From the NCBI RefSeq assembly GCF_056746865.1, contig NZ_CM163382.1: 64,000 nt of DNA, one strand, 5' to 3'. The number at the start of each line of letters is the position of its first letter. Position 1 is the first letter of the stretch. Of this stretch, positions 15,262 to 64,000 are shown piece after piece. Both the position numbers and the translations under genes were made by a program. A model generated the notes under the pieces. That model was not told where the DNA came from, did not search any database, and saw nothing but the letters and a program-made list of their open reading frames with translations.

Positions 15262-16281
15262 TCAAAAATCGGCTTTCAACACCACGCGGTAACGCGCCTT
15301 ACCGTCGCGCACATGCTGGATGGCGTCGTTAATTTTCGACATCGGGAACAGTTCGGTGGTCGGCGCAACCTTGCTGCGGGCGGCAAAACGCATCAGCTTA
15401 CGCAGCTCATAAGGCGTGCCGGTAGCAGAACCAGAGACGCTGCGATCGCCCGCAATTAACGTAAAGGCCGGAACAGACAGCGGCGTGAGAACCGCACCGA
15501 CCGTATGGAAATTACCGCCATAGGTCAGCGCCTCAAAATAGGGCTGCCAGTCGAGGCTGACGTTGACGGTGTTGATAATGAGATCAAACTGCCCCGCCAG
15601 TGCTTTCAGTGCCTGCGGATCGCGGCTATTCACCACTTTATCGGCACCCATCGCCAGCACTTCCTGCTCTTTCGCCGGATTAGAACTAAAGGCTGTCACC
15701 TCGCATCCCATTGCGTGCAGAAGTTTTATAGCGATATGCCCCAGCCCGCCAATACCAATTACCCCAACGCGGCTGGTAGCAGTGATATGGTGCATCAACA
15801 GTGGTTTAAAGACCGTGATACCGCCGCACAACAGCGGCCCGGCGGACTCGATATCAATATTTTCTGGCAGTGGAATCACCCATTGCCAGTCCGCACGCAA
15901 CTTCTCGGCAAAGCCACCGCGATTCATAATCGTCGGCACCGCACCTTGCTCGCAGTTGATCTGATTACCGCTAATACAGGCGTCGCAGTGACCACAGCTA
16001 CGCGCCGTCCAGCCAATCCCGACACGCTGACCGACCTGCAAACCTTTATCCTGCGCGGCGCTCCCGAGTGCCACCACGCGCCCAATCACCTCATGCCCGG
16101 CAACCAGCGGATATTGTGAAAATCCCCATTCGTTATCGATCATCGACAGATCGGAATGGCAGATCCCGCAGTAATCCACCTGCACTTCAACATCTTGTGG
16201 CCTCAGCTCACCGGGATCGTACTCATAAACTTCCAGTTCGCCGCCCGCTTCTTTTGCGGCATAGCTTTTTATCATCGACAT
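15262..16281 (-). CDS. ahr: NADPH-dependent aldehyde reductase (Zn-ADH family)
   Basis: 339-aa product from MSMIKSYAA; zinc-ADH motifs GHEVIG and CGICHSD; ORF track start 16323 is upstream in-frame. Confidence 0.85.
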
Positions 16282-16420
16282 TTTTTGGTCCTTCTCTGGT
16301 GTTGTTTGGGAAGTGTAGAGCATGGCAGGGCGGGGTGCCTGGAGTGTGACAAAGGTTACACATCGCTGTATGCAATGCTGAAAATTTCAGCACTTAGCGA
16401 GGTGCGAGCAAGCTGGCGCT

Positions 16421-16448
16421 TGCATGGTGGCGTGCGACAGGTATAATC
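16421..16448 (+). promoter_or_regulatory. leuX promoter (sigma70 -35 TTGCAT, -10 TATAAT)
   Basis: TTGCAT at 16421-16426 and TATAAT at 16443-16448, 16-bp spacer, about 28 bp upstream of tRNA 5' end. Confidence 0.55.
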
Positions 16449-16476
16449 CACAACGTTTTCCGCATACCTCTTCAGT

Positions 16477-16561
16477 GCCGAAGTGGCGAAATCGGTAGAC
16501 GCAGTTGATTCAAAATCAACCGTAGAAATACGTGCCGGTTCGAGTCCGGCCTTCGGCACCA
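16477..16561 (+). tRNA. leuX: tRNA-Leu (anticodon CAA), 85 nt with encoded CCA
   Basis: GCCGAAGTGGCGAAATCGGTAGACGC...CGGTTCGAGTCCGGCCTTCGGCACCA; anticodon loop TTCAAAA; long variable arm typical of tRNA-Leu. Confidence 0.95.
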
Positions 16562-16573
16562 AAAGTATGTAAA

Positions 16574-16598
16574 TAGACCTCAACTGAGGTCTTTTTTT
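16574..16598 (+). terminator. Intrinsic terminator of leuX
   Basis: Hairpin GACCTCA-ac-TGAGGTC followed by T7. Confidence 0.75.
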
Positions 16599-16821
16599 AT
16601 GCCTGAAATCCAGTGTTTATCTATCTTTCCCGCTATATTAACTCTCTCAAGGTCAACCGATATCAACGTACATCTACCAACATATGTTGGTACAGATGAT
16701 GGTATTTCCGGTTCGATAATGCTTGTACCAACAGGGAGGGAATACGATGGCATTAACAGATATCAAAGTCAGAGCAGCCAAGCCAACGGATAAGCAATAT
16801 TAGCTGACTGATGGTGGCGGT

Positions 16822-18012
16822 ATGCATCTGCTTGTCCATCCAAATGGTTCTAAGTACTGGCGTTTGCAGTACCGTTATGAGGGAAAGCAAAAAATGCTGG
16901 CACTTGGGGTTTATCCTGAAATCACACTAGCGGATGCCAGAGTACGTCGTGACGAGGCGCGTAAGCTGCTTGCGAATGGCGTCGATCCGGGAGACAAAAA
17001 GAAAAATGATAAGGTTGAACAGAGTAAAGCACGAACCTTTAAAGAAGTCGCGATTGAGTGGCATGGCACCAATAAAAAGTGGTCTGAAGATCACGCCCAT
17101 CGTGTGCTAAAAAGTCTTGAAGATAATCTTTTTGCAGCGCTTGGTGAACGTAATATCGCTGAGTTAAAAACTCGAGATTTATTAGCACCTATTAAGGCCG
17201 TAGAAATGTCTGGACGTCTTGAAGTGGCCGCTCGTCTTCAGCAGCGCACTACAGCCATCATGCGCTATGCAGTGCAAAGTGGGTTAATTGATTATAACCC
17301 GGCACAAGAGATGGCTGGGGCGGTTGCTTCCTGTAATCGACAACATCGTCCCGCGCTTGAATTAAAGCGCATCCCTGAGTTGCTTACAAAAATAGATAGC
17401 TATACTGGTAGGCCGCTAACCCGATGGGCGATAGAACTCACTTTGCTGATCTTTATTCGGTCCAGTGAGCTGCGTTTTGCTCGTTGGTCAGAGATCGATT
17501 TCGAAGCGTCTATATGGACTATCCCACCGGAGCGGGAGCCTATTCCTGGAGTGAAACATTCCCATAGAGGCTCAAAAATGCGTACAACGCATCTAGTGCC
17601 TCTTTCAACGCAAGCTCTTGCAATTTTAAAGCAGATAAAACAGTTTTATGGGGCCCATGACTTGATATTTATTGGTGATCACGATTCGCACAAACCCATG
17701 AGTGAGAATACGGTAAATAGTGCGTTACGGGTCATGGGGTATGATACAAAAGTAGAGGTTTGTGGTCATGGCTTTCGAACAATGGCCTGTAGTTCATTGG
17801 TCGAATCAGGTCTGTGGTCTCGTGATGCTGTTGAACGTCAGATGAGCCACATGGCGCGAAATTCAGTGAGGGCCGCGTATATCCATAAAGCAGAGCATCT
17901 GGAAGAACGGCGATTGATGCTACAGTGGTGGGCCGATTTTCTGGATGTAAACAGAGAAAGGTTTATCAGTCCATTTGAATATGCAAAGATTAATAATCCA
18001 TTAAAACAGTAA
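16822..18012 (+). CDS. intB: P4-type tyrosine integrase; annotated ORF lacks the conserved N-terminus, which lies in-frame upstream (16747-16800) behind a TAG
   Basis: 396-aa ORF with integrase C-terminal motifs (HGFRTMACSSLVE...VERQMSH...AAYIHKAE); immediately 3' of a tRNA gene. Confidence 0.85.
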   Translation: MHLLVHPNGSKYWRLQYRYEGKQKMLALGVYPEITLADARVRRDEARKLLANGVDPGDKKKNDKVEQSKARTFKEVAIEWHGTNKKWSEDHAHRVLKSLEDNLFAALGERNIAELKTRDLLAPIKAVEMSGRLEVAARLQQRTTAIMRYAVQSGLIDYNPAQEMAGAVASCNRQHRPALELKRIPELLTKIDSYTGRPLTRWAIELTLLIFIRSSELRFARWSEIDFEASIWTIPPEREPIPGVKHSHRGSKMRTTHLVPLSTQALAILKQIKQFYGAHDLIFIGDHDSHKPMSENTVNSALRVMGYDTKVEVCGHGFRTMACSSLVESGLWSRDAVERQMSHMARNSVRAAYIHKAEHLEERRLMLQWWADFLDVNRERFISPFEYAKINNPLKQ

Positions 18013-18016
18013 TCAT

Positions 18017-18034
18017 CCCGGGCAAATGCCCGGG
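18017..18034 (+). terminator. Hairpin after intB
   Basis: CCCGGGCAAATGCCCGGG palindrome 5 bp after stop. Confidence 0.45.
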
Positions 18035-18412
18035 AATTATTCTAGGATTATTTTCTTTGTTAAAAAAGACAAACGGTATTAACTGATGTATTTACTATTT
18101 ACCGCTCCCTGCAGGGGGGATTATCAGAATCCGCGGTTATTCATTATTTATATACATTCAATAAAAAAGTAACCTCATAAAAAATCCTGTACTCACAGGG
18201 TGATGCGGGATAACTGACGTAAGGAGTGCTGCAGGGATTTGATGGTCCCTTGTGCTGATATGAATACGGATATTTTATACAGAATACTTTTCAGTACAAG
18301 CGACTGTATTACAGTCTGCCATATATGATTACCTGTGATCAGGAAGAATAAGTGGCTGAGGTTTCAAACTGTCTGCCGGTATATTCCTCTCTCCCTTAAA
18401 AACCATAACAGG

Positions 18413-19500
18413 TTAGTTATCTTCGTCTGTCAGCGGATTGAATGGCGGTATATTTTCAGTACAAATACCGGTCATCCACTGAAAAATACCTGCGAAATGA
18501 CGGGCACTGATTTTTCTACTGACGGGCTGATGAGACGTTATGTCACTGGCGGTAATAATCAGTGGCACACTGTAGCCTCCCTGCACATGACCATAATGAT
18601 GAACAGGATTGGCACTGTCGCTGACCGACAGCCCAAGGCCAGAAAAGTAAAGCATGGCGAAATGACGTGAGTACCGGCGAAGGATACCATCAAGCTGGCC
18701 AAGAAAGTTATCCAGTTTACTGATGCTGGCGAGGTAACAGGCAATTTTTCGGGGATACTGCTCCAGGTAATTATTCGGCTAGGAGTTAAGGCTGTCACAC
18801 GGATTTGGATGAGAACCCATCATGTGCAGGAAAATTATCTTCGGAGAGGATGTATCCGCCAGCGCACGTTCTGTTTCCTGTAACAACAGTTTGTCATCTG
18901 TTTTACGGGAAGCGAAGCTGCCTTTCTTGAGGAAAGTGGCATGCTCCGCATCAGAAGCAATAACAGAGATGCGTGTGTCATGCTCCCCCAGTTTTCCTTG
19001 ATTGGATATCCACCATGTGCTGTATCCTGCTTTTGCTGCCAGCGCCACCACATTGTTGCCGGAATCAGGGTTCTGCTCATAGTCATAAATCAGTGTCCGG
19101 CTCAGGGAAGACACTGTACTGGAGGCTGTCGAGGTATAATCGTCAATAAATAAACCGGGTGCCGTATTCAGCCACGGTGTGGTTGGTACGGGATAGTCAT
19201 ACACTGACATATAATCCCTGCGCACACTCTCACCAGTGACAATAACAATCGTATCATATAACGGTGCTCCCGGCTGGATTTTCCAGTTGTCAGCCCCGTG
19301 CTACTCAGTTGTTCATAACGCTGCATTTCACGTAATGTGTCAGTTGTCCCCACAACTGTTCCTTTAACCATCCGCAATGGCCAACGGTTTACAGAGCATA
19401 ATACGAATAGCCGTAGAGCCAGCCAGTTACGGTGGTCGCGATGGTGTGTCCGCCAGAAAATCACCACGAATACCAGAATCGCGGCACTGACCAGAAAATG
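18413..19500 (-). pseudogene. yjgX: Decayed phosphoethanolamine-transferase/sulfatase-family gene (yjgX-like), split into several frames
   Basis: Minus-strand ORFs 18413-18655, 18779-19225 and 19168-19635 carry consecutive pieces of a sulfatase-like domain (e.g. KIIFLHMMGSHPNPCD) in different frames. Confidence 0.55.
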
Positions 19501-19995
19501 ATAAACAGGAAACACGGGGCGGTTCACTTTGCTTTCTCCTGTAGTGTTTTCTGTAGGTTCTGAACCGGTTCTAGCGGGGTTGTGAGGCTGATGGCAATCG
19601 CCGGGCTCTTCCTGCATGTTACACTGGTACTGCAAGAGGGGGCCTTCGCTCCTCTGACATTACTCAGTATTTTCACTACTACACCCCATCTGCCATCCAT
19701 AACAACCGATTCACCCCCTCGCGAGGCGTTGTTGCCCGTCACCCGGACAGACACCGTTATGGACTTCTCTTGTTGCACGATCGATCAATTGTTATGCATG
19801 CTGACACCACAACCCCGGTGGGTATGACCGATGCCTTTCTCACTCTCTTCCCGGTCATCGTCGGCCTTCCCCGTTATTGTGGCGTGTCAGCACCCTCGAC
19901 GGCATTTCGATGGCTGCTCAGTGTTCACTCACGTTACGGCCCGCATAACCCGTTGACTTCCTGAAGAAGTCGTTTCAGGGAGAGATTCAGCCCTT

Positions 19996-20826: not shown

Positions 20827-22251
20827 AATGCCAGTCAGTTAAGCAACTGACTGGCTCTTTTTCGGGGCTGTGGGGTATTTCCAGGGCCTCTCCTTTACCA
20901 CTCTCGGGAAGGCCCTTTCCCTTCTTGTCGGTAATTTCACAAGTTGTCCCATACTTGCAAGATCGCGCATCAGCTCCGGTATACGTCCCGGTGAAGCGCC
21001 CTGCAATGTCATCAGCATTCTCATCACCATTCCGCATGATTCTGAGAAACTCAGTTGATTCGGCCAGTAACCTTTCAGATGTTCCGCCATTTTAATCATC
21101 TGATATCTCACCAGATTATAAGCCAGTAAGACACCCCACAGCTCTTGCTCCACAAGCTCCGGCTTTTTACTTCTCAGCGTCAGCCTGCTCCGTTGCATCG
21201 TCTGTTTTATCTCCCTGTATCCCAGTTCGATTTCCCAGCGATGACTGTACAGATCCCCCATTTCTCCTCCGGGGAAGCGCATGGCGTCCGTCATCGACGT
21301 CAGCAGATGGCAGACTTTTCCTTTGCGCGTCACGGTCAGCAGGCGGGCAGTCACTTCATTTCCCAGTCCCGGCCACTTTTTTCGTGCCTGCGGGCTGGTT
21401 TTCAGCTTCACCAGATGATCGCCTTTACCCAGTTTTCTGATCTCTTCATATTGCGCTCCCTTTCTGAGAGGTATCATCCAGTGGCGGTGTTCTCCCGCCA
21501 GGCTCCAGGCATTTAACAGTCCCAGTGAGTAATAACCTTTATCCATTAACGTCAGAGTGTTATCGCCGGTTTGTTCTATAAGTTGCTCAGCAAGCTCATT
21601 TTCGCTGTTCTTCATCGTGCCGAAGGCTGCAGCCGTCAGCAGATGGCTGGTCAGTTCCATCTGGCAGACCATTTTGACCTGCGGGTAGAGCGCCGGGTTC
21701 CCGGCATGTGTCTGGCGGGGGAAGGCTGCATCGTTCTCTGGTGTATCCGGTGTGCGCCAGAACACACCATCGATGGCCAGCAGGGTCAGGCCGCACCAGT
21801 GCGGATGCGGCGTGGCGTTATGCCAGAGCTGCGCTGTTTTCGTGAACACGCGGCGGACAGCCTCACTTCCCAGGCGCTGGCGGGCCTGAATAACGGCACT
21901 GGGGGCAACGAAGGGGCGATTGCCCGGCAGCATGATGTCCAGGCGATTCACAATCTGGTGAAGAGGTTCTTTACGCTCAAGCGCCATGCCAACAATACAC
22001 CAGACCATCATTTCGAGGGGAAGACGGCGCTTGCGTAGCGTTACAGTACCTGATTCGGCAAGGCAACGAGAGATGAGTTCGGGGTCGAGGTAATCCCCCA
22101 GAGAAGTCAGTGGGTTACGCAGAGAATCGTAACGGGATACCAGATCAAGAGCCTGTCCAATGTGCATAAAAAAATCCGGAAACAAGTGAGCGTTTCCGGA
22201 TTCTTACACAGCCACTGGATCGGTCAACTGATCCTTAACTGATCGGCATTA
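20827..22251 (-). mobile_element. IS4 insertion sequence (about 1.43 kb)
   Basis: Terminal inverted repeats TAATGCCAGTCAGTTAAG / TAATGCCGATCAGTTAAG; single transposase ORF; 12-bp direct repeats flank it. Confidence 0.9.
20839..22167 (-). CDS. insG: IS4 transposase
   Basis: 442-aa product from [16 protein letters not shown]... (DDE transposase); ORF track start 22185 is 6 codons upstream. Confidence 0.85.
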
Positions 22252-41400: not shown

Positions 41401-41625
41401 GGAAATAAAATTGTTTCCAATAGACATTTTTAACATGTTGTTTTTCTAAGTGTTATAAGGTAGGTATAAAATGGGATGGAGCCTCTGCTTCTGGCATGTG
41501 TCGGTCAGAATGACTCATGATGTGGTCTGCTATTATTGACATCCTCACTGCCCTAAAGGATGGGGATTTCGGTAATGCTGCCAACTTACTGATTTAGTGT
41601 ATGATGGTGATTTTAAGGTGCTTGC

Positions 41626-41901
41626 GTGGCTTCCATTTCCATCAGATGTCCTTCCTGCTCCGCTACTGAAGGCGTGGTGCGTAACGGCAAAAGCACTGCC
41701 GGACATCAGCGCTATCTCTGCTCTCCTTGCCGTAAAACATGGCAACTACAGTTCACTTACACCGCCTCTCAGCCCGGTAAGCACCAGAAAATCATTGATA
41801 TGGCCATGAATGGCGTCGGATGTCGCGCCAGTGCACGCATTATGGGCGTTGGCCTCAACACGGTTTTACGTCACTTAAAAAACTCAGGCCGCAGTCGGTA
41901 A
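41626..41901 (+). CDS. insA: IS1 InsA (zinc-finger/HTH repressor)
   Basis: 91-aa [26 protein letters not shown]... Confidence 0.85.
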
Positions 41902-42323
41902 CCTCGCGCATACAACCGGGCAGTGATGTGATTGTCTGCGCTGAAATGGACGAACAGTGGGGCTACGTCGGTGCTAAATCACGTCAGCGCTGGCTGTTTT
42001 ACGCGTATGACAGGATACGGAGGACGGTTGTGGCGCACGTCTTCGGTGAACGCACTCTGGCCACACTGGAGCGTCTTCTGAGCCTGCTGTCGGCCTTTGA
42101 GGTCGTGGTATAGATGACGGATGGCTGGCCGCTGTATGAATCACGCCTGAAGGGAAAGCTGCACGTTATCAGCAAGCGTTACACTCAGCGCATTGAGCGA
42201 CATAATCTGAATCTGAGACAACATCTGGCAAGGCTGGGACGGAAGTTACTGTCGTTCTCAAAATCGGTGGAGTTGCATGACAAGGTCATCGGGCATTATC
42301 TGAACATAAAACACTATCAGTAA
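41820..42323 (+). pseudogene. insB: IS1 InsB frame interrupted by an in-frame TAG (42111-42113)
   Basis: Track splits InsB into 41820-42113 and 42114-42323; ...[20 protein letters not shown]... where canonical InsB has ...VVIWMTDGW. Confidence 0.75.
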
Positions 42324-42406
42324 GTTGGAGTCATTACCTCCTCCCGAACTCAAAGCTATCATACAGATAATTACTGGTTAACCCTATATAGGGCATTTTA
42401 AAGTGT

Positions 42407-43800: not shown

Positions 43801-44074
43801 TGACACGTGCATTACCCCTACCGCGATAATGCAACCGTACAATATAGGGCGTTTCCTAAACGCAGCCCTCATCACTCCAATCCAACAAGACACAGCATTT
43901 TTGATCACGAAGAAAGACAAATAATTTCCGTAAATGTTTCCGTTATTACAAATAACAACAGTGTTTTACATTTCTTTGGCCTCAGGCCCGCGCATGTTGC
44001 CATTCGATGTCATTTTCCTGACTCGTTTCTTCTTTATGGTGTAGTGTGATCTTCACTTTATGGATGCTAACAAT

Positions 44075-45433
44075 ATGAAAAGAAAAATTATTCCCGTGCT
44101 AATCGGTTGTACGCTCTCTTTCTCTGCCCTGGCGGCACAACCTACGGCTGAGCGCTATGTCGTCAGTTTTCCAGAAGGCACGCACGTGAACTACGCCGGC
44201 GCATTTGCCAGTGCATTCCCGAACGGCCTTCCGGTTGGGATAGGTTCTGGCCTGCTGTTCACCGGTAAACAGGGCGATGCCCTGACATTCGCAACCATTA
44301 CCGATCGCGGTCCGAACGCGGATTCACCGAAAGAGGGGAAAAACGAAACTAAAATTTTCGTTACGCCAGATTTCGCGCCGCTGCTGATGACGATTCGTGT
44401 ACAAAACGGCAAAGCGGAGGCCATCGATCCCCGTCCTCTGCATGACGATAAAGGCGCGATCAACGGTCTGCCGCTGGCAAGCGACGTGATTGGCTCCACC
44501 AATGAAGTGGCCTTCAGCGACACGTTACATAGACTGAAGGGGGATAATCGCGGGCTGGATACGGAAGGGATCACTCCGGATGGTAAAGGAGGTTACTGGC
44601 TGTGCGATGAGTATGGCCCGTTCCTGATTAACATCGACAGTAAAGGGAAAATCCTGGCAATCCACGGTCCGCAGGCGGCGGAAGGGGAAAAAGCGATTGC
44701 GGGCGGTTTGCCAAATATCCTCAAATGGCGTCAGGCGAACCGCGGCTTTGAAGGCCTCACCCGTATGCCGGACGGGCGTATTATTGTCGCCGTGCAAAGT
44801 ACGCTGGATATCGACGCTAAGAGCAAGAAAAAGGCGCTGTTTACGCGTCTGGTGAGCTTCGATCCGGCAAGCGGAAAAACCGCGATGTACGGTTATCCTA
44901 TCGACAGCGCGGCCTACAGCAAAAACAGCGACGCTAAAATCGGAGACATCGTGGCGCTCGATAACCAGCACATCCTGCTGATCGAACAGGGAAGAGATAA
45001 AAACAACAGAATGCGTAACCTGATTTACGAGGTCGATCTCAATAAGGCGAGCGACCTGTCAGGCTTCGACAAGCCGGGTGAGTATCCGGAGTTTGATGAT
45101 GAGAAAACCCTGTCACAGCGCGGCATTACCCTTGCGCAGAAAACGCAGGTTGTTGATCTGCGCTCCTTGGGCTGGCAGCAGGAGAAGGCTGAAGGGTTGG
45201 CGCTGATCGACAGCAAAACGCTGGCGGTGGCGAACGATAACGACTTTGGCGTGAAGGTGGCGATGCAACATCCGGTCGAGGGCAAGACATTCAAGGATTA
45301 TCGGGTGAACGCGGAAGGAAAGCTGACGCTTGACGACAAGCAGGTTGAAACGACCCTCAGAGTGAAGCCACTGGAGAAACCGGAGTCTGACAGTGAACTG
45401 TGGATTGTGACGCTGCCGGAAGCGTTGAAATAA
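44075..45433 (+). CDS. Secreted protein, phytase-like / esterase-like beta-propeller family (tentative)
   Basis: Signal peptide MKRKIIPVLIGCTLSFSALAAQP; 452-aa product; family call from overall pattern only. Confidence 0.45.
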   Translation: MKRKIIPVLIGCTLSFSALAAQPTAERYVVSFPEGTHVNYAGAFASAFPNGLPVGIGSGLLFTGKQGDALTFATITDRGPNADSPKEGKNETKIFVTPDFAPLLMTIRVQNGKAEAIDPRPLHDDKGAINGLPLASDVIGSTNEVAFSDTLHRLKGDNRGLDTEGITPDGKGGYWLCDEYGPFLINIDSKGKILAIHGPQAAEGEKAIAGGLPNILKWRQANRGFEGLTRMPDGRIIVAVQSTLDIDAKSKKKALFTRLVSFDPASGKTAMYGYPIDSAAYSKNSDAKIGDIVALDNQHILLIEQGRDKNNRMRNLIYEVDLNKASDLSGFDKPGEYPEFDDEKTLSQRGITLAQKTQVVDLRSLGWQQEKAEGLALIDSKTLAVANDNDFGVKVAMQHPVEGKTFKDYRVNAEGKLTLDDKQVETTLRVKPLEKPESDSELWIVTLPEALK

Positions 45434-45671: not shown

Positions 45672-47057
45672 TTATTCAGCTGGCAGTGCTATGCGCCACG
45701 GAAGCAGTTCGCTGACCCGGTTGACCGGCCAGTCTGCTATGACGCCAAGCACATGGCGAAGGTAGCTTTCTGGATCCACGTCATTCAGTTTGCACGTCCC
45801 GATCAGGCTGTACAGTAGCGCTCCCCGCTCACCACCATGGCCAGAGCCGAAGAACAGGGTCTTCATCTTTTCACGCAACCAGCTTTCCAGGGATTTCAAC
45901 AGCGGTTTCGTTTTTCGCTGACGTTCAGCAAGCCGCTGCTCTGCCGGCATTCCCCTTATATCCGCCTCTATGGCGTACAACTGACCGATCTGCTCTAGGG
46001 CTTCTTCCGTCAGTGCTGACGGGATGCGGACGTGCACATCGTGGATCTTTCGGCGGGCATGAGCCCAGCAGGCAGCTTCCGTTATCCCACCATTGCGATA
46101 CAGCTCGTTGAACCCGGCGTACGCATCCGCTTGCAGCACACCGCTGAAGCAAGCAAGATGAGTCTGCGGATGGATGCCTTTTCTGTCCGGGCTGTAAGCG
46201 AACCACACTGCAGGTGCCAACGCTGACCCGGCATTGCGGTCATCACGAACATACGCCCACAACCGCCCGGTCTTCGTCTTCTTATTACCCGGCAGCAGTA
46301 CCTGGACCGGGGTATCATCGGCATGGAGTTTGCCGTCAGTCATGACATAGCCATGAAGCGCCTCTTCCAGCGGAGACAGCAGCCGGCAGCATGCATCCAC
46401 CCAGCCCGACAGCAGTGAACGGCTCAGCTCCACACCTTGCCGGCCGTATATTTCTGACTGGCAATACAGCGGGGTGTGCTCTGCATACTTCGAGGTCAGC
46501 ACGCGGGCCAGCAGCCCCGGTCCGGCGATACCCCGCTCGATGGGCCGCGAAGGTGCAGGTGCCTGCACGATGGCATCGCACTGAGTACAGGCATGTTTTT
46601 CCCGTACCGTCCGGATAACCCGGAAGGCGCTACGCATCAACTCCAGCTGTTCGGCGGTATCCTCGCCCAGATAGCTCAGTGAACCGCCGCAGTTCGGGCA
46701 GCACGGCGCCGCAGGCAACAGTCGCTTTTCGTCACGGGGTAGTGATTCAGGGAACGGCTTACGGGTGCGGGTCTGACGCAACGGACGCTGTACTGCCGGG
46801 TCATACACCCTACCAGTCAGCGTATCGCTCTCTTTCTGAAGCCGGTTCAGATCGGCTTCCATTTGTGCGATACGGCGGGAGACTTTTTCGGAACGACTGC
46901 CGAAGTTCATCCGGCGGAGTTTATCCAGCTGCGCCTGCAGATGGTCTATTTCGCGCTCCCGGTTGCTCAGCTTTTCCTGCAGGGCGTGGATCAGCGCTTC
47001 CTGTTCGGCCAGGCGCTGTTTTAGCAGGAAGATGTCGTCAGAAGAGATGTCGTTCAT
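45672..47057 (-). CDS. IS66-family transposase TnpC (orf3)
   Basis: 461-aa ORF; N-terminal leucine zipper, zinc motif CPNCGG...CTQCD, C-terminal ...[19 protein letters not shown]... Confidence 0.85.
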
Positions 47058-50238: not shown

Positions 50239-50815
50239 GATAACGGTTCATGTATCCCCTGAGCTGACAGTGTACCGGGTATATTAAGCGTAACCGACAG
50301 GTTCTCCTTCATACCATATTAAATTTTTCCAGGTATTGCCGCTGCCTTATTTCGTCCCATACAGGAAAACTCGTCTGGGTTTCTGACAAATACGCGAAAC
50401 TCACAGCCCCTCAATATCAACCACACGCTGTAAGCCGGTAATACCTGAAAATCAGCCTATTACCGCCCGCGCCTCCGTTACCGAACGCTCAGGTGACCAG
50501 ACTGAAGCCCTGCACGCACTCGTAAAGTTTGCGGTCAGTTCCGTCAGTCGGTGGGCAACCGCAGAGTTACGGGCTTCCAGGTCCACAGGAGTGAGTCTAT
50601 AACGCGTGTGAAAAATCATTTTTTCTGGCGTTGACAGAACACATTACAGGCTGCCACTTACCCGGTGTCCCGCAATACAGCCTTAGTGTTCCGTTATCGG
50701 GGATCCGGACGCACCGCAACAACCGGGGAAGTATTTCTGGTTTAGAGCTGTGTCAAGAGGGATTTCTCAGCCCCTCACTCACCGGCTCAGTCTCAGAGCA
50801 GGAGTGGATTTGCCC

Positions 50816-51721
50816 CTATATTTCCAGACACCTGTTATCACTTAACCCATTACTGGCCCGCTGCCGTAGATATTCCCGTGGCGAGCGATAACCCAGTGCA
50901 CTATGCGGATGCCATTCGTTATAATGCTCGAACGCCTCTGCAAGGTTCTTTGCTGCCGTTAACCCGTCTGGTTTAGGCATGATACTGATGTAGTCACGCT
51001 TTATCGTTTTCACGAAGCTCTCTGCTATGCCGTTACTCTCCGGACTCCGCACCGCCGTGTTCTTCGGTTCAAGCCCCAACATCCGGGCAAACTGCCGTGT
51101 TTCATTAGCCCGGTAGCATGAACCATTATCCGTCAGCCACTCTACTGGAGACGCCGGAAGCTCGTTGCCGAAGCGGCGTTCCACCGCTCCCAGCATTACG
51201 TCCTGTACTGTTTCACTGTCGAAGCCGCCCGTAGTGACTGCCCAGTGCAGTGCCTCACGGTCACAGCAGTCCAGCGCGAACGTGACTCGCAGTTTTTCTC
51301 CGTTATCACAGCGGAACTCGAACCCGTCAGAGCACCATCGTTGATTGCTTTCTTTCACGGCCACTTTGCCAGTATGTGCCCGTTTCGATGGCGGTACAGC
51401 GGTTTTTCGCTCAAGCAACAGCGCATTCTGGCGCATGATCCGGTAAACACGTTTGGCATTGATCGCAGGCATACCATCAAGTTCGGCCTGTCTGCGAAGC
51501 AGCGCCCATACCCGACGATAACCATACGTGGGCAGCTCTCCGATAACATGGTGTATACGGAGAAGCACATCCGTATCATCTGAGTGACGGCTGCGGCGAC
51601 CATCTTTCCAGTCATCGGTTCGTCTGAGAATGACGTGCAACTGCGCACGCGACACCCGGAGACAACGGCTGACTAAGCTTACTCCCCATCCCCGGGCAAT
51701 AAGGGCGCGTGCGCTATCCAC
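50816..51721 (-). CDS. insD: IS2 transposase InsD (orfB)
   Basis: 301-aa [33 protein letters not shown]... Confidence 0.9.
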
Positions 51722-52044
51722 TTTTTTGCACGCCCGTATTCAACGGCTTCTTTAAGGAGTTCATTTTCCATCGTTTTTTTGCCGAGCAGGCGCTGGAGTT
51801 CTTTAATCTGCTTCATGGCAGCAGCAAGTTCAGAGGCAGGAACGACCTGCTCTCCTGCGGCCACAGCAGTAAGACTTCCCTCCTGGTATTGCTTGCGCCA
51901 GAGAAATAACTGGCTGGCTGCCACACCGTGTTGCCGGGCAACAAGGGAGACCGTCATTCCCGGTTCAAAACTCTGCTGAACAATAGCGATCTTTTCCTGT
52001 GTAGTACGCCGTCTGCGTTTCTCCGGTCCTAAGACATCAATCAT
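51679..52044 (-). CDS. insC: IS2 InsC (orfA)
   Basis: 121-aa product from [41 protein letters not shown]... Confidence 0.85.
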
Positions 52045-52696
52045 CTGCTCTCCAATGACTAGTCTAAAAACTAGTATTAAGACTATCACTTATTTAAGTG
52101 ATATTGGTTGTCTGGAGATTCAGGGGGCCAGTCTAGGAGCATTAATACGCTCAGTTCATGTCTTATACAGGAATGGGCACAGGGGGAGCTGGCGTGTCAC
52201 TGCTGATTTTACGCATCAGCGTTCATGTATTTGCACTCTGATACAGAATGCTTCACAGCGCTCTGTTACCGGAGAGATTTACTCTCTTAGCTTACTCTGG
52301 CAAATCCTTTACGTTACTCTCTGATGACTTCTTATATTTATAATACCAATCAGACAGCCTTATCCCATCGGTGATATCAGTCTCCTCCTCGCCAGGAACG
52401 GGCTGACTCACTGTAACCACCTCCGAAAACAACTCTGCAATTATCAGAACGCTAGTTTTCCCCTTGTCTCACGAAAGTCCTCCCTCCTTTATCGCGCGTG
52501 CGTGCGGAAGCATCTTTTCGCAACAACCCCCCGGGATTCCGCTACGGCTCTGCCATCGCAATCCCCCCGTTTATCTCCGGACAGCCACATTCCCGATTAT
52601 TTTTTACGTTTCTCCCCGGTTGTTATGCCAGTGAAGGTGGCGCGCTGTTTTCATGACCACACCGGCTGGTTTAACAACATCCGGAGGAACATTCTC

Positions 52697-55182: not shown

Positions 55183-56667
55183 TTACTTCGCTCTCAGCTT
55201 ATTGTAGTGATAACCCGAGGTAAAAATACCAGAGACATCAGACAACTTTAAACTGGCTATCTGGGGAAGCAGAACATACATGGTTTTTCCTTCCGGCACG
55301 ACAGAAAGCCTGAACTGAGATTCAAGAATGTTCAGCAATGCGTTCAGTTTTTTCCTGTTTCTGAACCGGCCCGGGCCACACTGGAGAATATAATTTTTCC
55401 TGACACGGGGCGGGCATTCTCCGCGGCACTCCTCAATGAGCCAGTCGAACAGCTCCTCGGCGTCCTTCTGCTGCAGTTCAGATTCATCAGGTAACGCAAA
55501 TAATTTTTTATATTCATCTGTGTACCACGAACTTATTACGACAGCAGACGTCATGATATCGGCAGAGATTTTCCCTTCACCATAGCTGAAATACTGAAAT
55601 AACGCTGCAATTCTTGCAATGTTTTCTGTTTTTTTTGAAACATGTCCCCGAAACGGGCTTAAGGGTCCGGAAGGGGATAAATCCTGCTCCAGAACATTAT
55701 AGTGCTCAATAAATATTTTTTGCGCTTCAGGCGAAAAATGCAGACAATACCGTTCATCCTCACTGGATTTTTCAATACTGCCTCTGGCCAGTTCCATTAA
55801 TCGTTCATGAAATGCCGTTAATGATCCTCCCGGAATCACAGCTCCGTTAATAAAGCGTTTCCCCTGCGTGGTTGCAGGTTTACTGATAAGACAACGGGCA
55901 AGAAAACCACTGTCCCTGGCAACAGAACCTTTTCGCTCCATATATCGGTCAAAAAGACCGGGTTGCACCATGAGGGATAACGTCATTCTGGCATTTTCAA
56001 TCATCTGTTCGGGTTCATTCTTTCTGTCCACAGACAATACAGAGCCATCCCACATTTTGTTAATAAAAGGCAACTCAGACAGGGTATATCCATCAAATAT
56101 AATACCGGCTTCATCTGACATAATACCAACTGAACGCCATTTACCACAAAGCTGATTCTTAATTGCCGCAGTCGTGGCATCATTAAAAATGAATTTATAC
56201 CTCACAGGTTCTTCCGCACTGTTTTTCTGAAGTACTTCCAGTTGTCTGAGGGTTTCTGACTCATCCGCGCCTTTGCGGAGTTCTTTATTCAGTTTTGACA
56301 ACAATGCTTTTTTCTGAGCCTTTAAAAGCTCTTCCTTGTTTTTCCAGACAGCCAGTTCACTTTTGTATCTGGAATATAACTGCATCTCCTGCTGGTACAG
56401 GGGCTTCATTAATAATTTGTCCACTGCGGTTTTTCGTTCTCCGGACTCGGCAAGCGTCAGGAAAAAAAGAGAGACCGGCCCCCGCAGTGTATTCAGTCTG
56501 CAGACATCAATCAGATTCTGGCAGACAAGTGAAACAGCGCCCAGGGCAGACGCTGCCACAAGCCCAAGGGGAGCCTGCGTAATTTGCTGAGCTTCAATAA
56601 CGGCATCACGAATGAGTGGAGGCAGCGAACTCAGGGGAAACTCATCACAAGGCTGACCGAATGACAT
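55183..56667 (-). CDS. Hypothetical protein (about 494 aa), possibly DUF3987/YfjI-like
   Basis: Long intact ORF; start taken at MSFGQPCDEFPLSSLPPLIRDA; family assignment is recollection only. Confidence 0.45.
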   Translation of the reverse strand: MSFGQPCDEFPLSSLPPLIRDAVIEAQQITQAPLGLVAASALGAVSLVCQNLIDVCRLNTLRGPVSLFFLTLAESGERKTAVDKLLMKPLYQQEMQLYSRYKSELAVWKNKEELLKAQKKALLSKLNKELRKGADESETLRQLEVLQKNSAEEPVRYKFIFNDATTAAIKNQLCGKWRSVGIMSDEAGIIFDGYTLSELPFINKMWDGSVLSVDRKNEPEQMIENARMTLSLMVQPGLFDRYMERKGSVARDSGFLARCLISKPATTQGKRFINGAVIPGGSLTAFHERLMELARGSIEKSSEDERYCLHFSPEAQKIFIEHYNVLEQDLSPSGPLSPFRGHVSKKTENIARIAALFQYFSYGEGKISADIMTSAVVISSWYTDEYKKLFALPDESELQQKDAEELFDWLIEECRGECPPRVRKNYILQCGPGRFRNRKKLNALLNILESQFRLSVVPEGKTMYVLLPQIASLKLSDVSGIFTSGYHYNKLRAK

Positions 56668-57897
56668 AGTAACCTCACTATACACAGATATAAAAGCACT
56701 GCAATTCTGGCTATTAATAGCAAAAATAGCAGTCAAATCAATATGAGGTAAAATTTTTTGTTGATTTAATGGTTAAATAATAACCACAGTGTATTTTGCT
56801 GCTGAAGAAAGACAAAATGAATCTGTGTGTCCCCTCCTTCCCTTCGGAGCACATCCACTATTCAAATTTTACACAACCACGTACGAACAAAAAGCATCAT
56901 CCCGGGTATTGCAGATACCGGTTTCCTGCCGGGAAGAATCATAAACAGAACACCGGGAATAACGCCTTCAGGAATCACCCCCCCTCCTGAAGAAGAATAA
57001 AATAAAGAAGACTACAGTTCCTGCACTGAATGCTGAGTACAATATTTTATGGACAGGATGACATTTTTATAAATAACAAAAACCATTTAATACTGATACA
57101 TCAATAAAATACTTCTTCCCTGCTGACACAGATAAAATGCACCATTTTTTCTTCAAATACTTCTGTATAATCGCCAGCCAATGATGAGAATGGATTAAAA
57201 TAACACTTCTTCGACAAACACAAAAACAGCCTTCATTTTACATCATCATCCAGTTTCAGTTAACCCCGGACGAGCGACAGTGTTTCAGTACAGGAATTAA
57301 AAGCCAGCTTTTGCTCAGTAAAACACACTCAACTAATAATATCTCAGCAGATATTATCCTGACCAGGACACCTCACATTACTGAATTCTCTTCCGACAGT
57401 ATCACTGCACAAATAAAAAAGAACGGGATAAATATTCAGACCGGAAGAATGGTGTCACAAAAGCATTTAATCATTACGCATGACCAGGAAGGGAAACACT
57501 TAACCACATGGTATCAACAGATATCATTACGTGTGCACTCTTATAAAAAACACACAGAAGAAGTAAGATAATTATAAACGTAAATTTAATATCTCCCACT
57601 GACATCTCCCCCACAATACACTAAAAAATACTCACAGCAGTAAACACAGATACACCTGATAATCATACAGCCGATAAATATTTTCCCCTTTACGGAGAAA
57701 TCAGCCTGCTGTTTAACAATAACGGCGTATTTTCATGGAAGGAGATCACCCAGTAACGGATAAGTCCTGATCTCCTTCATGTTAATACGCAACAATCCCA
57801 TCGATTCAAAACAATTTCAGACAGATATTATCTCCGTGAATCCCCCGCCACCTTTCCGGTGCGCGGGGTTTTGTCTTTTTTCACCGGGAATACATGT

Positions 57898-58928: not shown

Positions 58929-59083
58929 ATAGTGGTTAATGGTCTGCGAAAAGGCAGCTGAATCTCTTCATCATGCAGAACGGAATTGCACACAACGGAC
59001 TGATACTTCTCTGGCGGATGAGAGAGGGGAAGCATTTATGTCCGGGAAAAACCACTTTATCTGAGCATGCTGTTTTGTACCTG

Positions 59084-59116
59084 CCGGTATCCACATTTGT
59101 GGGTACCGGCTTTTTT
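59084..59116 (+). terminator. Terminator-like hairpin plus T6 in the flu leader
   Basis: CCGGTATCCACA-tt-TGTGGGTACCGG then CTTTTTT, ending 26 nt before the flu ATG. Confidence 0.6.
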
Positions 59117-59141
59117 ATTCACCCTCTGTAAGGAAAAGCTG

Positions 59142-62100
59142 ATGAAACGACATCTGAACACCAGCTACAGGCTGGTATGGAATCACATTACGGGCACCCT
59201 GGTGGTGGCCTCCGAACTGGCCCGCTCACGGGGAAAACGCGCTGGTGTGGCGGTTGCGCTGTCTCTTGCTGCTGTCACATCAGTCCCGGCACTGGCTGCT
59301 GACAAGGTTGTACAGGCGGGAGAAACCGTGAACGACGGAACACTGACAAATCATGACAACCAGATTGTCCTCGGTACGGCCAACGGAATGACCATCAGTA
59401 CCGGTCTGGAGTATGGGCCGGATAACGAGGCCAATACCGGCGGACAATGGATACAAAATGGCGGTATCGCCAACAACACTACTGTCACCGGTGGTGGTCT
59501 TCAGAGAGTGAATGCCGGAGGAAGCGTTTCAGACACGGTTATCAGTGCCGGAGGCGGACAGAGCCTTCAGGGGCAGGCAGTGAACACCACTCTGAACGGC
59601 GGTGAGCAGTGGGTACATGAAGGCGGGATTGCAACGGGTACCGTCATTAATGAGAAGGGCTGGCAGGCCATCAAATCCGGCGCAGTGGCAACCGACACGG
59701 TTGTGAATACCGGCGCGGAAGGGGGACCGGATGCGGAAAATGGTGATACCGGGCAGACCGTCTACGGAGATGCCGTACGCACCACCATCAATAAAAATGG
59801 TCGTCAGATTGTGGCTGCTGAAGGAACGGCAAATACCACTGTGGTTTATGCCGGCGGCGACCAGACTGTACATGGTCACGCACTGGATACCACGCTGAAT
59901 GGGGGGTACCAGTATGTGCACAACGGCGGTACGGCGTCTGGCACTGTTGTAAACAGTGACGGCTGGCAGATTGTCAAAAACGGGGGTGTGGCCGGGAATA
60001 CCACCGTTAATCAGAAGGGCAGACTGCAGGTGGACGCCGGTGGTACAGCCACGAATGTCACCCTGAAGCAGGGCGGCGCACTGGTTACCAGTACGGCTGC
60101 AACCGTTACCGGCATAAACCGCCTGGGAGCATTCTCTGTTGTGGAGGGTAAAGCTGATAATGTCGTACTGGAAAATGGCGGACGCCTGGATGTGCTGACC
60201 GGACACACAGCCACTAATACCCGCGTGGATGATGGCGGAACGCTGGATGTCCGCAACGGTGGCACCGCCACCACCGTATCCATGGGAAATGGCGGTGTAC
60301 TGCTGGCCGATTCCGGTGCCGCTGTCAGTGGTACCCGGAGCGACGGAAAGGCATTCAGTATCGGAGGCGGTCAGGCGGATGCCCTGATGCTGGAAAAAGG
60401 CAGTTCATTCACGCTGAACGCCGGTGATACGGCCACGGATACCACGGTAAATGGCGGACTGTTCACCGCCAGGGGCGGCACACTGGCGGGCACCACCACG
60501 CTGAATAACGGCGCCATACTTACCCTTTCCGGGAAGACGGTGAACAACGATACCCTGACCATCCGTGAAGGCGATGCACTCCTGCAGGGAGGCTCTCTCA
60601 CCGGTAACGGCAGCGTGGAAAAATCAGGAAGTGGCACACTCACTGTCAGCAACACCACACTCACCCAGAAAGCCGTCAACCTGAATGAAGGCACGCTGAC
60701 GCTGAACGACAGTACCGTCACCACGGATGTCATTGCTCAGCGCGGTACAGCCCTGAAGCTGACCGGCAGCACTGTGCTGAACGGTGCCATTGACCCCACG
60801 AATGTCACTCTCGCCTCTGGTGCCACCTGGAATATTCCCGATAACGCCACGGTGCAGTCGGTGGTGGATGACCTCAGCCATGCCGGACAGATTCATTTCA
60901 CCTCCACCCGCACAGGGAAGTTCGTACCGGCAACCCTGAAAGTGAAAAACCTGAACGGACAGAATGGCACCATCAGCCTGCGTGTACGCCCGGATATGGC
61001 ACAGAACAATGCTGACAGACTGGTCATTGACGGTGGCAGGGCAACCGGAAAAACCATCCTGAACCTGGTGAACGCCGGCAACAGTGCGTCGGGGCTGGCG
61101 ACCAGCGGTAAGGGTATTCAGGTGGTGGAAGCCATTAACGGTGCCACCACGGAGGAAGGGGCCTTTATCCAGGGGAATAAGCTGCAGGCCGGTGCCTTTA
61201 ACTACTCCCTCAACCGGGACAGTGATGAGAGCTGGTATCTGCGCAGTGAAAATGCTTATCGTGCTGAAGTCCCCCTGTATACATCCATGCTGACACAGGC
61301 AATGGACTATGACCGGATTCTGGCAGGCTCCCGCAGCCATCAGACCGGTGTAAACGGTGAAAATAACAGCGTCCGTCTCAGCATTCAGGGCGGTCATCTC
61401 GGTCACGATAACAACGGCGGTATTGCCCGTGGAGCCACGCCGGAAAGCAGCGGCAGCTATGGCTTCGTCCGTCTGGAGGGTGACCTGCTCAGAACAGAGG
61501 TTGCCGGTATGTCTCTGACGACAGGGGTGTATGGTGCCGCAGGCCATTCTTCCGTTGATGTTAAGGATGATGACGGTTCCCGCGCCGGCACGGTCCGGGA
61601 TGATGCCGGCAGCCTGGGCGGATACCTGAATCTGACACACACGTCCTCCGGCCTGTGGGCTGACATTGTGGCACAGGGAACCCGCCACAGCATGAAAGCG
61701 TCATCGGACAATAACGACTTCCGCGCCCGGGGCTGGGGCTGGCTGGGCTCACTGGAAACCGGTCTGCCCTTCAGTATCACTGACAACCTGATGCTGGAGC
61801 CACAACTGCAGTATACCTGGCAGGGACTTTCCCTGGATGACGGCCAGGATAACGCCGGTTATGTGAAGTTCGGGCATGGCAGTGCACAACATGTGCGTGC
61901 CGGTTTCCGTCTGGGCAGCCACAACGATATGAGCTTTGGTGAAGGCACCTCATCCCGTGACACCCTGCGCGACAGTGCAAAACACCGTGTGCGTGAACTG
62001 CCGGTGAACTGGTGGGTACAGCCTTCTGTTATCCGCACTTTCAGCTCCCGGGGTGACATGAGCATGGGTACAGCCGCAGCCGGCAGTAACATGACGTTCT

Positions 62101-62261
62101 CACCGTCCCGGAATGGCACGTCACTGGACCTGCAGGCCGGACTGGAAGCCCGTGTCCGGGAAAATATCACCCTGGGCGTTCAGGCCGGTTATGCCCACAG
62201 TGTCAGCGGCAGCAGCGCTGAAGGTTATAACGGTCAGGCCACGCTGAATGTGACTTTCTGA
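59142..62261 (+). CDS. flu: Antigen 43 self-associating autotransporter
   Basis: 1039-aa product from [25 protein letters not shown] (extended autotransporter signal), repetitive Gly/Thr/Asn-rich beta-helix passenger, C-terminal beta-barrel ending in F. Confidence 0.9.
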
Positions 62262-63804: not shown

Positions 63805-64000
63805 ATGAAAACATTGTCTCAGAACACCACCTCTTCGGCCTGTGCACCGGAGACTGACCTGCAACAACTGGTAGCCACTCCCGTCCCTGATGAACGGCGC
63901 ATCAGCTTCTGGCCGCAGCACTTTGGCCTCATTCCACAGTGGGTGACCCTGGAGCCCCGTATCTTCGGCTGGATGGACCGTCTGTGTGAAGACTACTGCG
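63805..64000 (+). CDS. KlcA/ArdB-like antirestriction protein, partial (runs off window end)
   Basis: ...ISFWPQHFGLIPQWVTLEPRIFGWMDRLCEDYC resembles KlcA core motif; AGGA RBS 11 nt upstream; an in-frame upstream ATG at 63463 is also possible. Confidence 0.55.
   Translation, partial: MKTLSQNTTSSACAPETDLQQLVATPVPDERRISFWPQHFGLIPQWVTLEPRIFGWMDRLCEDYC

Follow-up and report, generated by a model that had tools for sequence, protein, structure and literature searches.

The intB gene beside leuX carries an amber codon at position 19 and is probably a nonsense pseudogene of a P4-type integrase

In this work we consider intB, an integrase gene that adjoins the tRNA gene leuX in a stretch of Escherichia coli DNA of 64,000 nucleotides (the window, by which we mean the whole stretch analysed). 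Its reading frame is broken by an amber codon. Since translation would stop after 18 residues, and since any product restarted downstream would have a broken arm domain, we take the gene to be a nonsense pseudogene with a probability of about 0.9: the remnant of an integrase that no longer moves a heavily decayed island. The first-pass annotation of the window had left two options, an N-terminally truncated integrase and a nonsense pseudogene, and the second of these is the same as the curated MG1655 entry (b4271).

Results

The reading frame of intB opens with an ATG at 16747-16749, which is followed by 17 codons and gives the peptide MALTDIKVRAAKPTDKQY. After the TAG at 16801-16803 the same frame continues with LTDGGG to a second ATG at 16822-16824 (Met26), and from Met26 it is open without interruption to the TAA at 18010-18012. 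This upstream frame, its TAG and Met 16822 had been pointed out in the first-pass annotation, with coordinates and peptide that prove exact. The product would be 396 aa long from Met26, and the frame comprises 421 codons if the TAG is read through. Downstream of Met26 the frame still encodes what remains of the arm-binding domain, followed by the central and catalytic domains. P4-type integrases have a frame that is uninterrupted from the conserved N-terminus, whereas that of intB is interrupted at codon 19. The features of the region are collected in Table 1.

Table 1. Features of the leuX-intB region and of the more distant parts of the island, in window coordinates
Feature	Position	Strand	Basis or context
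leuX, tRNA-Leu, wild-type anticodon CAA; integration target of P4-family elements	16477..16561	+	ARAGORN; Rfam RF00005, 59.4 bits
Attachment core GAGTCCGGCCTTCGGCACCA, left island junction	16542..16561	+	Identity to P4 attP core
leuX Rho-independent terminator (stem-loop and T run)	16575..16598	+	Terminator scan
Three copies of TACCAACA / TGTTGGTA (16675-16683; 16684-16694, inverted; 16724-16733)	16675..16733	.	Repeat search
Strong Shine-Dalgarno GGGAGGG for the original start	16735..16741	+	Duplex with 16S rRNA 3' end, -11.6 kcal/mol
intB original start and first 18 codons, MALTDIKVRAAKPTDKQY	16747..16800	+	Window translation
Amber TAG, from AAG (Lys19) by A-to-T transversion	16801..16803	+	DNA alignment with intact alleles; 30-mer counts
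Remaining intB frame from Met26, 396 aa	16822..18012	+	Pseudogene b4271 in NC_000913.3
GC-rich terminator-like hairpin right after the intB stop (8 pairs, 7 of them G-C)	18016..18035	+	Terminator scan
Second in-frame TAG, unrelated, in insB of IS1F (TGG in IS1A)	42112..42114	+	Alignment with MG1655 IS1A and IS1F
Phytase-like gene	44060-45433		Post-IS1F module
IS66	45672-47057		Post-IS1F module
IS2 copy	50804-52135		Post-IS1F module
DUF3987/YfjI-like gene	55183-56736		Post-IS1F module
AIDA/Ag43-type autotransporter	59067-62261		Post-IS1F module

With the TAG read as Lys, Pfam finds Arm-DNA-bind_3 (PF13356) at residues 3-87 with 100.1 bits (positions 1-82 of the 83 in the profile), Phage_int_M (PF22022) at residues 98-192 with 93.4 bits, and Phage_integrase (PF00589) at residues 207-383 with 67.6 bits. 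Read in this way, intB has by sequence the three-domain architecture of P4-type tyrosine integrases, and the catalytic Arg, His-x-x-Arg, His and Tyr of these enzymes are all present as well: R238, H341, R344, H368 and Y378 are kept, each opposite the identical residue in the alignment with P4 Int. When the frame is scored from Met26 onward, Arm-DNA-bind_3 has 73.2 bits and only profile positions 24-82 are left. A further change is seen near the active site, where codon 370 is GCG (Ala) at 17854-17856, two residues past the catalytic His368 and within the SH-x-E-RN motif. Glu370 is found in 119 of the 120 relatives described below, in P4 Int and in the intact E. coli alleles; the change to Ala (E370A) is specific to the lineage.

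We then compare the N-terminus with its homologues, taken as the 120 best matches (84-98% identity) from a search of 5.8 billion proteins. These come from many Enterobacterales, among them Pectobacterium, Dickeya, Klebsiella, Citrobacter, Enterobacter, Yersinia, Serratia, Pantoea and others, and are 415-422 aa long save two of 391 and 436 aa. Every one of the 120 aligns from residue 1 and has Lys at position 19. The peptide MALTDIKVRAAKPTDKQY is the same in 18 of 18 residues in the closest intact allele and agrees with the 120 relatives save at the variable positions 10 and 14. The N-terminal domains in the PDB (accession codes: 3JU0 and 3JTZ) also align to IntB from residue 1, and 3JU0 too has Lys19. 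By the Pfam scores and these alignments, the resemblance of the upstream peptide to integrase N-termini is not due to chance. The first-pass annotation had recognized in this peptide the N-terminus of P4-type integrases, a claim that gains from both the Pfam score and the 120 homologues aligned from residue 1; the alignment with P4-family integrases that it had advised, in search of relatives that start at Met 16822, yields none (0/120). Judged in this light, intB is a P4-type tyrosine integrase by descent and not an intact gene.

The next question is which state of codon 19 is the older one. Four intact E. coli alleles have AAG there, each with a PGAP CDS that begins at the upstream ATG: UMNF18 (98.4% DNA identity, 421 aa), Z0117EC0032 (96.1% DNA identity, 421 aa), isolate 127 (420 aa) and 99E2750 (414 aa). 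The change was therefore from AAG (Lys) to TAG, and TAG is the derived state. The nonsense mutation proposed in the first-pass annotation is borne out by these four alleles together with Lys19 in the 120 homologues, in P4 Int and in 3JU0. A nonsense pseudogene is recognized by a premature stop that is derived, and this is what is found here, with AAG in the four intact alleles and Lys in all outgroups.

To count the two alleles we use a 30-mer centred on the critical base, such that each 28-base megablast word is forced to span that base. The T version (TAG) is present in 922 of 5426 complete E. coli genomes, about one in six, and the A version (AAG), with flanks otherwise identical, in 1087 of the 5426. 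MG1655 and W3110 are among the TAG carriers. Of 15 carriers in a spread sample, about 4 are laboratory derivatives of K-12; humans, cattle, chickens, dogs, milk and wastewater are the sources of the others. The intB TAG is an old inherited polymorphism that is not peculiar to K-12. As to whether the TAG is conserved across strains, which the first-pass annotation had suggested to check, it is not: 922 genomes with TAG stand against 1087 with AAG, and it occurs in none of the 120 relatives. The split is a handy marker of a leuX island lineage that is common to K-12 and many clinical strains. The region just before the start codon differs as well. The TAG alleles (the window and B19429) have one C fewer between the Shine-Dalgarno and the ATG (ATACG-ATG), at 16746/16747, and the AAG alleles (UMNF18 and Z0117EC0032) read ATACGCATG at this place. 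Being linked to the TAG, the missing C provides a further marker of the lineage.

We turn to the remainder of the gene. When the differences between the window and UMNF18 are polarised with three further alleles, the derived changes on the TAG lineage are few, with 5 non-synonymous (K19*, T229I, C301Y, E370A and A401V) and 2-3 synonymous. The deeper comparison of the window with Z0117EC0032 gives 13 non-synonymous and 34 synonymous changes, which are again small numbers. This points to a relaxed constraint on the TAG lineage, on counts too small for proof. Past the TAG, the 1.19-kb frame has stayed open in each of the five TAG alleles that were examined (K-12, the window, B19429, MS6198 and TC_EC10), which counts against a dead gene.

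The consequences for translation and for the protein can be estimated from the same frame. The Shine-Dalgarno of the original start is placed about 5-7 nt before ATG 16747, depending on the bounds of the duplex. ATG 16822 lies 18 nt past the TAG and has a weak Shine-Dalgarno-like GGTGG (-5.4 kcal/mol); reinitiation there would be possible but not favoured, and the amount of protein restarted at Met26 is probably small or nil. In an AlphaFold model of residues 1-100 (pLDDT 77), helices are found at 5-10 and 61-76 and strands at 18-23, 26-30, 36-44 and 47-56. According to this model, the Met26 product would lose helix 5-10 and strand 1 (18-23) of the arm-type DNA-binding domain, and we infer that the recombination activity of IntB is lost.

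The surroundings of the gene are those of a P4-family element. The attP core of phage P4 (NC_001609 4078-4097, GAGTCCGGCCTTCGGCACCA) is the same as the last 20 nt of leuX at window 16542-16561, and in many E. coli genomes the homology to the window stops at about 16562, a position that marks the left junction of the island. A P4-type integrase gene stands next to the tRNA gene used as target, whose 3' end carries the att core, and intB and leuX have just this arrangement; intB adjoins leuX because P4-family elements integrate into the leuX 3' end. leuX is the sole tRNA gene in the 64-kb window, and an Rfam scan of 16000-18600 gives no family besides tRNA. An RNA element around the TAG was considered and rejected, as the fold there has z = -0.30 and Rfam reports the tRNA only.

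No leuX transcript has been detected beyond the leuX terminator (PMC2811032). As leuX transcription ends at its own terminator, intB needs a promoter of its own, and a simple scan of the + strand gives none. The terminator sits downstream of the att core, i.e., in island-derived DNA, so the trailer and terminator of this tRNA must be different ones in strains where leuX is followed by another element or by none. Between the core and the gene, the three TACCAACA-type repeats are candidate arm-type binding sites for the integrase, a reading that we adopt because the annotated arm repeats of P4 attP fall between the core and the start of int.

A second att core (at most 3 mismatches in 20 nt) is absent from the 64-kb window, where the island may extend past base 64000, and from the 49 kb between leuX and fimC in MG1655; likewise, no right-hand att repeat is seen in the 50 kb downstream of leuX in UMNF18, where the island may be longer. 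Matches to a 14-mer at 21615, 58346 and 61532 were considered as att sites and rejected, as they have 1-2 mismatches and lie on the other strand. The island contains a great many IS elements and pseudogenes. Beside intB, on the minus strand at 18300-19700, lies a yjgX phosphoethanolamine transferase remnant, which is frameshifted and has an internal stop (PGAP).

The gene has been annotated in two ways. In the MG1655 record (NC_000913.3), intB (b4271, 4496750-4497940) is curated as a pseudogene, and a "cryptic prophage PR-Y" feature at 4496675-4497940 has the upstream ATG exactly as its first base; the pseudogene state is already known from the K-12 reference annotation. In wild strains, PGAP calls a 402-aa CDS (WP_223293345.1) from CTG 16804, directly past the amber codon, with WP_223362169.1 as its counterpart in B19429. 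This CTG has no usable Shine-Dalgarno (-3.3 kcal/mol), and the start looks like an annotation artefact. Since the 402-aa call masks the defect, automated surveys of "intact island integrases" will miscount the TAG allele. A literature search for a description of the intB stop codon or for intB expression found nothing stated beyond annotation, and no expression or activity data on intB were found in the searchable literature.

The window has another in-frame TAG, in an IS1 at 41571-42338 that is identical to IS1F of MG1655, where its insB7 (b4576) is annotated as a pseudogene. The TGG-to-TAG change reported for this insB in the first-pass annotation is real, its position (near 42111) being within one or two bases. 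We considered, and rejected, an "amber theme" that ties the two TAGs to leuX and supP: the genes are unrelated, the changes are simple single-base ones, and leuX is wild type.

Discussion

The sequence of events that we propose would be the following. A P4-family island with the intB integrase would once have integrated into the 3' end of leuX, and a single A-to-T substitution within one lineage of E. coli made Lys19 (AAG) an amber codon (TAG). Ribosomes starting from the well-served ATG 16747 would make a peptide of 18 residues and then terminate, and in cells without an amber suppressor the full-length integrase would be absent. A Met26 restart product, if there is any, would be short of two elements of the arm domain, its N-terminal helix and beta-strand 1. 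In these terms intB is a textbook case of a genomic island that is fixed once its integrase gene dies, and matters little for biology.

Is the stop real, and could the gene function in spite of it? An error of sequencing or assembly in this record can be dismissed, as the T version of the 30-mer is found in 922 independent complete genomes. A more substantial alternative is that the remaining frame encodes an N-terminally truncated but working protein of 396-402 aa, reinitiated at ATG 16822 or at CTG 16804. Such a product would have kept core-binding and catalytic activity, or some domesticated role; we consider this unlikely. None of the 120 relatives starts there; 23 of the 83 positions of the arm-domain profile would be missing, strand 1 of the sheet among them; CTG 16804 comes directly past the stop and is without a usable Shine-Dalgarno; E370A is next to the catalytic His; and a partner att site was not found in K-12. 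Lambda Int fragments from which the arm-binding domain is missing can still cleave DNA, yet they do not recombine att sites. What speaks for a truncated protein is that the downstream frame is open with its five catalytic residues intact, that a 396-aa product could form by reinitiation at ATG 16822, 18 nt past the stop and with a weak Shine-Dalgarno, that the TAG allele persists in 922 genomes and many hosts, and that PGAP has the 402-aa CDS WP_223293345.1.

The stop might also be decoded. Laboratory strains with supE44 would insert Gln at the amber codon. leuX itself can mutate to the amber suppressor supP by a CAA-to-CUA change of its anticodon (PMC7969014), as the first-pass annotation had stated, and together with the second in-frame TAG, in insB of IS1F in the same island, this may suggest a conditional or programmed readthrough that gives full-length integrase at a low level or with a suppressor such as the leuX-derived supP. 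We find this highly improbable. A programmed readthrough stop is conserved, and this one is present in none of the 120 relatives and polymorphic against AAG within E. coli; a programmed stop also comes with a suppressor tRNA or a stimulatory RNA structure, and neither emerges from the tRNA scan of the 64-kb window, the fold or Rfam. The anticodon of leuX is CAA, as the first-pass annotation had it and ARAGORN confirms, the window has no other tRNA, and the RNA fold around the TAG is no better than that of shuffled sequences. Two TAGs among the disruptions examined are well within chance. Moreover, Lys19 is invariant, and the insertion of Leu or Gln is not obviously tolerated; a Gln- or Leu-substituted IntB (in supE44 or supP strains) may therefore be inactive. 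Decoding of codon 19 by supE44 or supP is a trait of those strains, not a design of the gene. Since the P4 att core fully accounts for the position of intB beside leuX, whose anticodon is CAA, the amber codon has nothing to do with the suppressor potential of leuX, and the supP link to the intB amber codon is a coincidence, which the first-pass annotation had not remarked.

There is also a slight chance that the amber allele is a retained state rather than neutral decay. If this were true, the stop might have been selected for locking a useful island, with the fec iron-citrate uptake genes, in place, or the Met26 restart product or a rare readthrough product might have kept a role, as a low-level or altered recombinase or in DNA binding; laboratory strains that suppress amber codons (supE44, supP) would then again make full-length IntB. 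The nonsense pseudogene remains the strongly favoured reading.

Comparison with known systems

Among the closest known systems is the KpLE2 or "PR-Y" element at leuX in MG1655, which is identical to the window over 16072-18253, with the TAG included, and the window stays colinear with MG1655 as far as position 42338, where IS1F ends. The window differs from MG1655 in being without IS2K (insertion point 18253), in an extra 4.4 kb between nanY and fec (26195-30557), and in a complete divergence past IS1F. The window is not K-12; its segment 16400-34000 is 100% identical to many clinical isolates, e.g., MS6198 and 118UI. The extra 26195-30557 segment holds an intact IS911, a DUF2254 remnant, a BCCT transporter and an IS600 remnant, and 42339-64000 is a different island module past IS1F (Table 1). 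Recombination between island variants seems to have had its breakpoint at IS1F. UMNF18, with its intact intB, has only the first ~3 kb (the integrase and the transferase remnant) in common with the window; past this it carries another mosaic, in which a type I restriction-modification system, a dGTPase-like gene and an H-NS-like gene are found among others.

Within the same island, insB7 of IS1F resembles intB in being a mobile-element gene that one in-frame TAG inactivates and that is annotated as a pseudogene; unlike intB, it belongs to the IS1 transposase family, and its mutation is independent.

The Int of phage P4 (NP_042035.1), which we use as the relative characterised by experiment, is 59% identical to IntB over 410 aa, from IntB residue 1. 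It has the same three-domain layout, and the Lys of intact IntB at the position equivalent to codon 19; its att core is the last 20 nt of leuX, and, like the window, the phage has possible arm-type repeats between the core and the int start. Unlike intB, P4 int is an open gene of 440 codons in a mobile replicon with an excisionase (Vis); in the window codon 19 is a stop, and an excisionase gene and a second att site were not identified. The leuX site also hosts a working counterpart of such an island. In uropathogenic E. coli 536, the integrase of PAI II536, which by its description is P4-like and encoded directly beside leuX as intB is, was shown by experiment to excise its island and to insert it again into leuX, also in a K-12 recipient (PMC3202238). 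In contrast to the intB island, PAI II536 has an active enzyme and flanking direct repeats.
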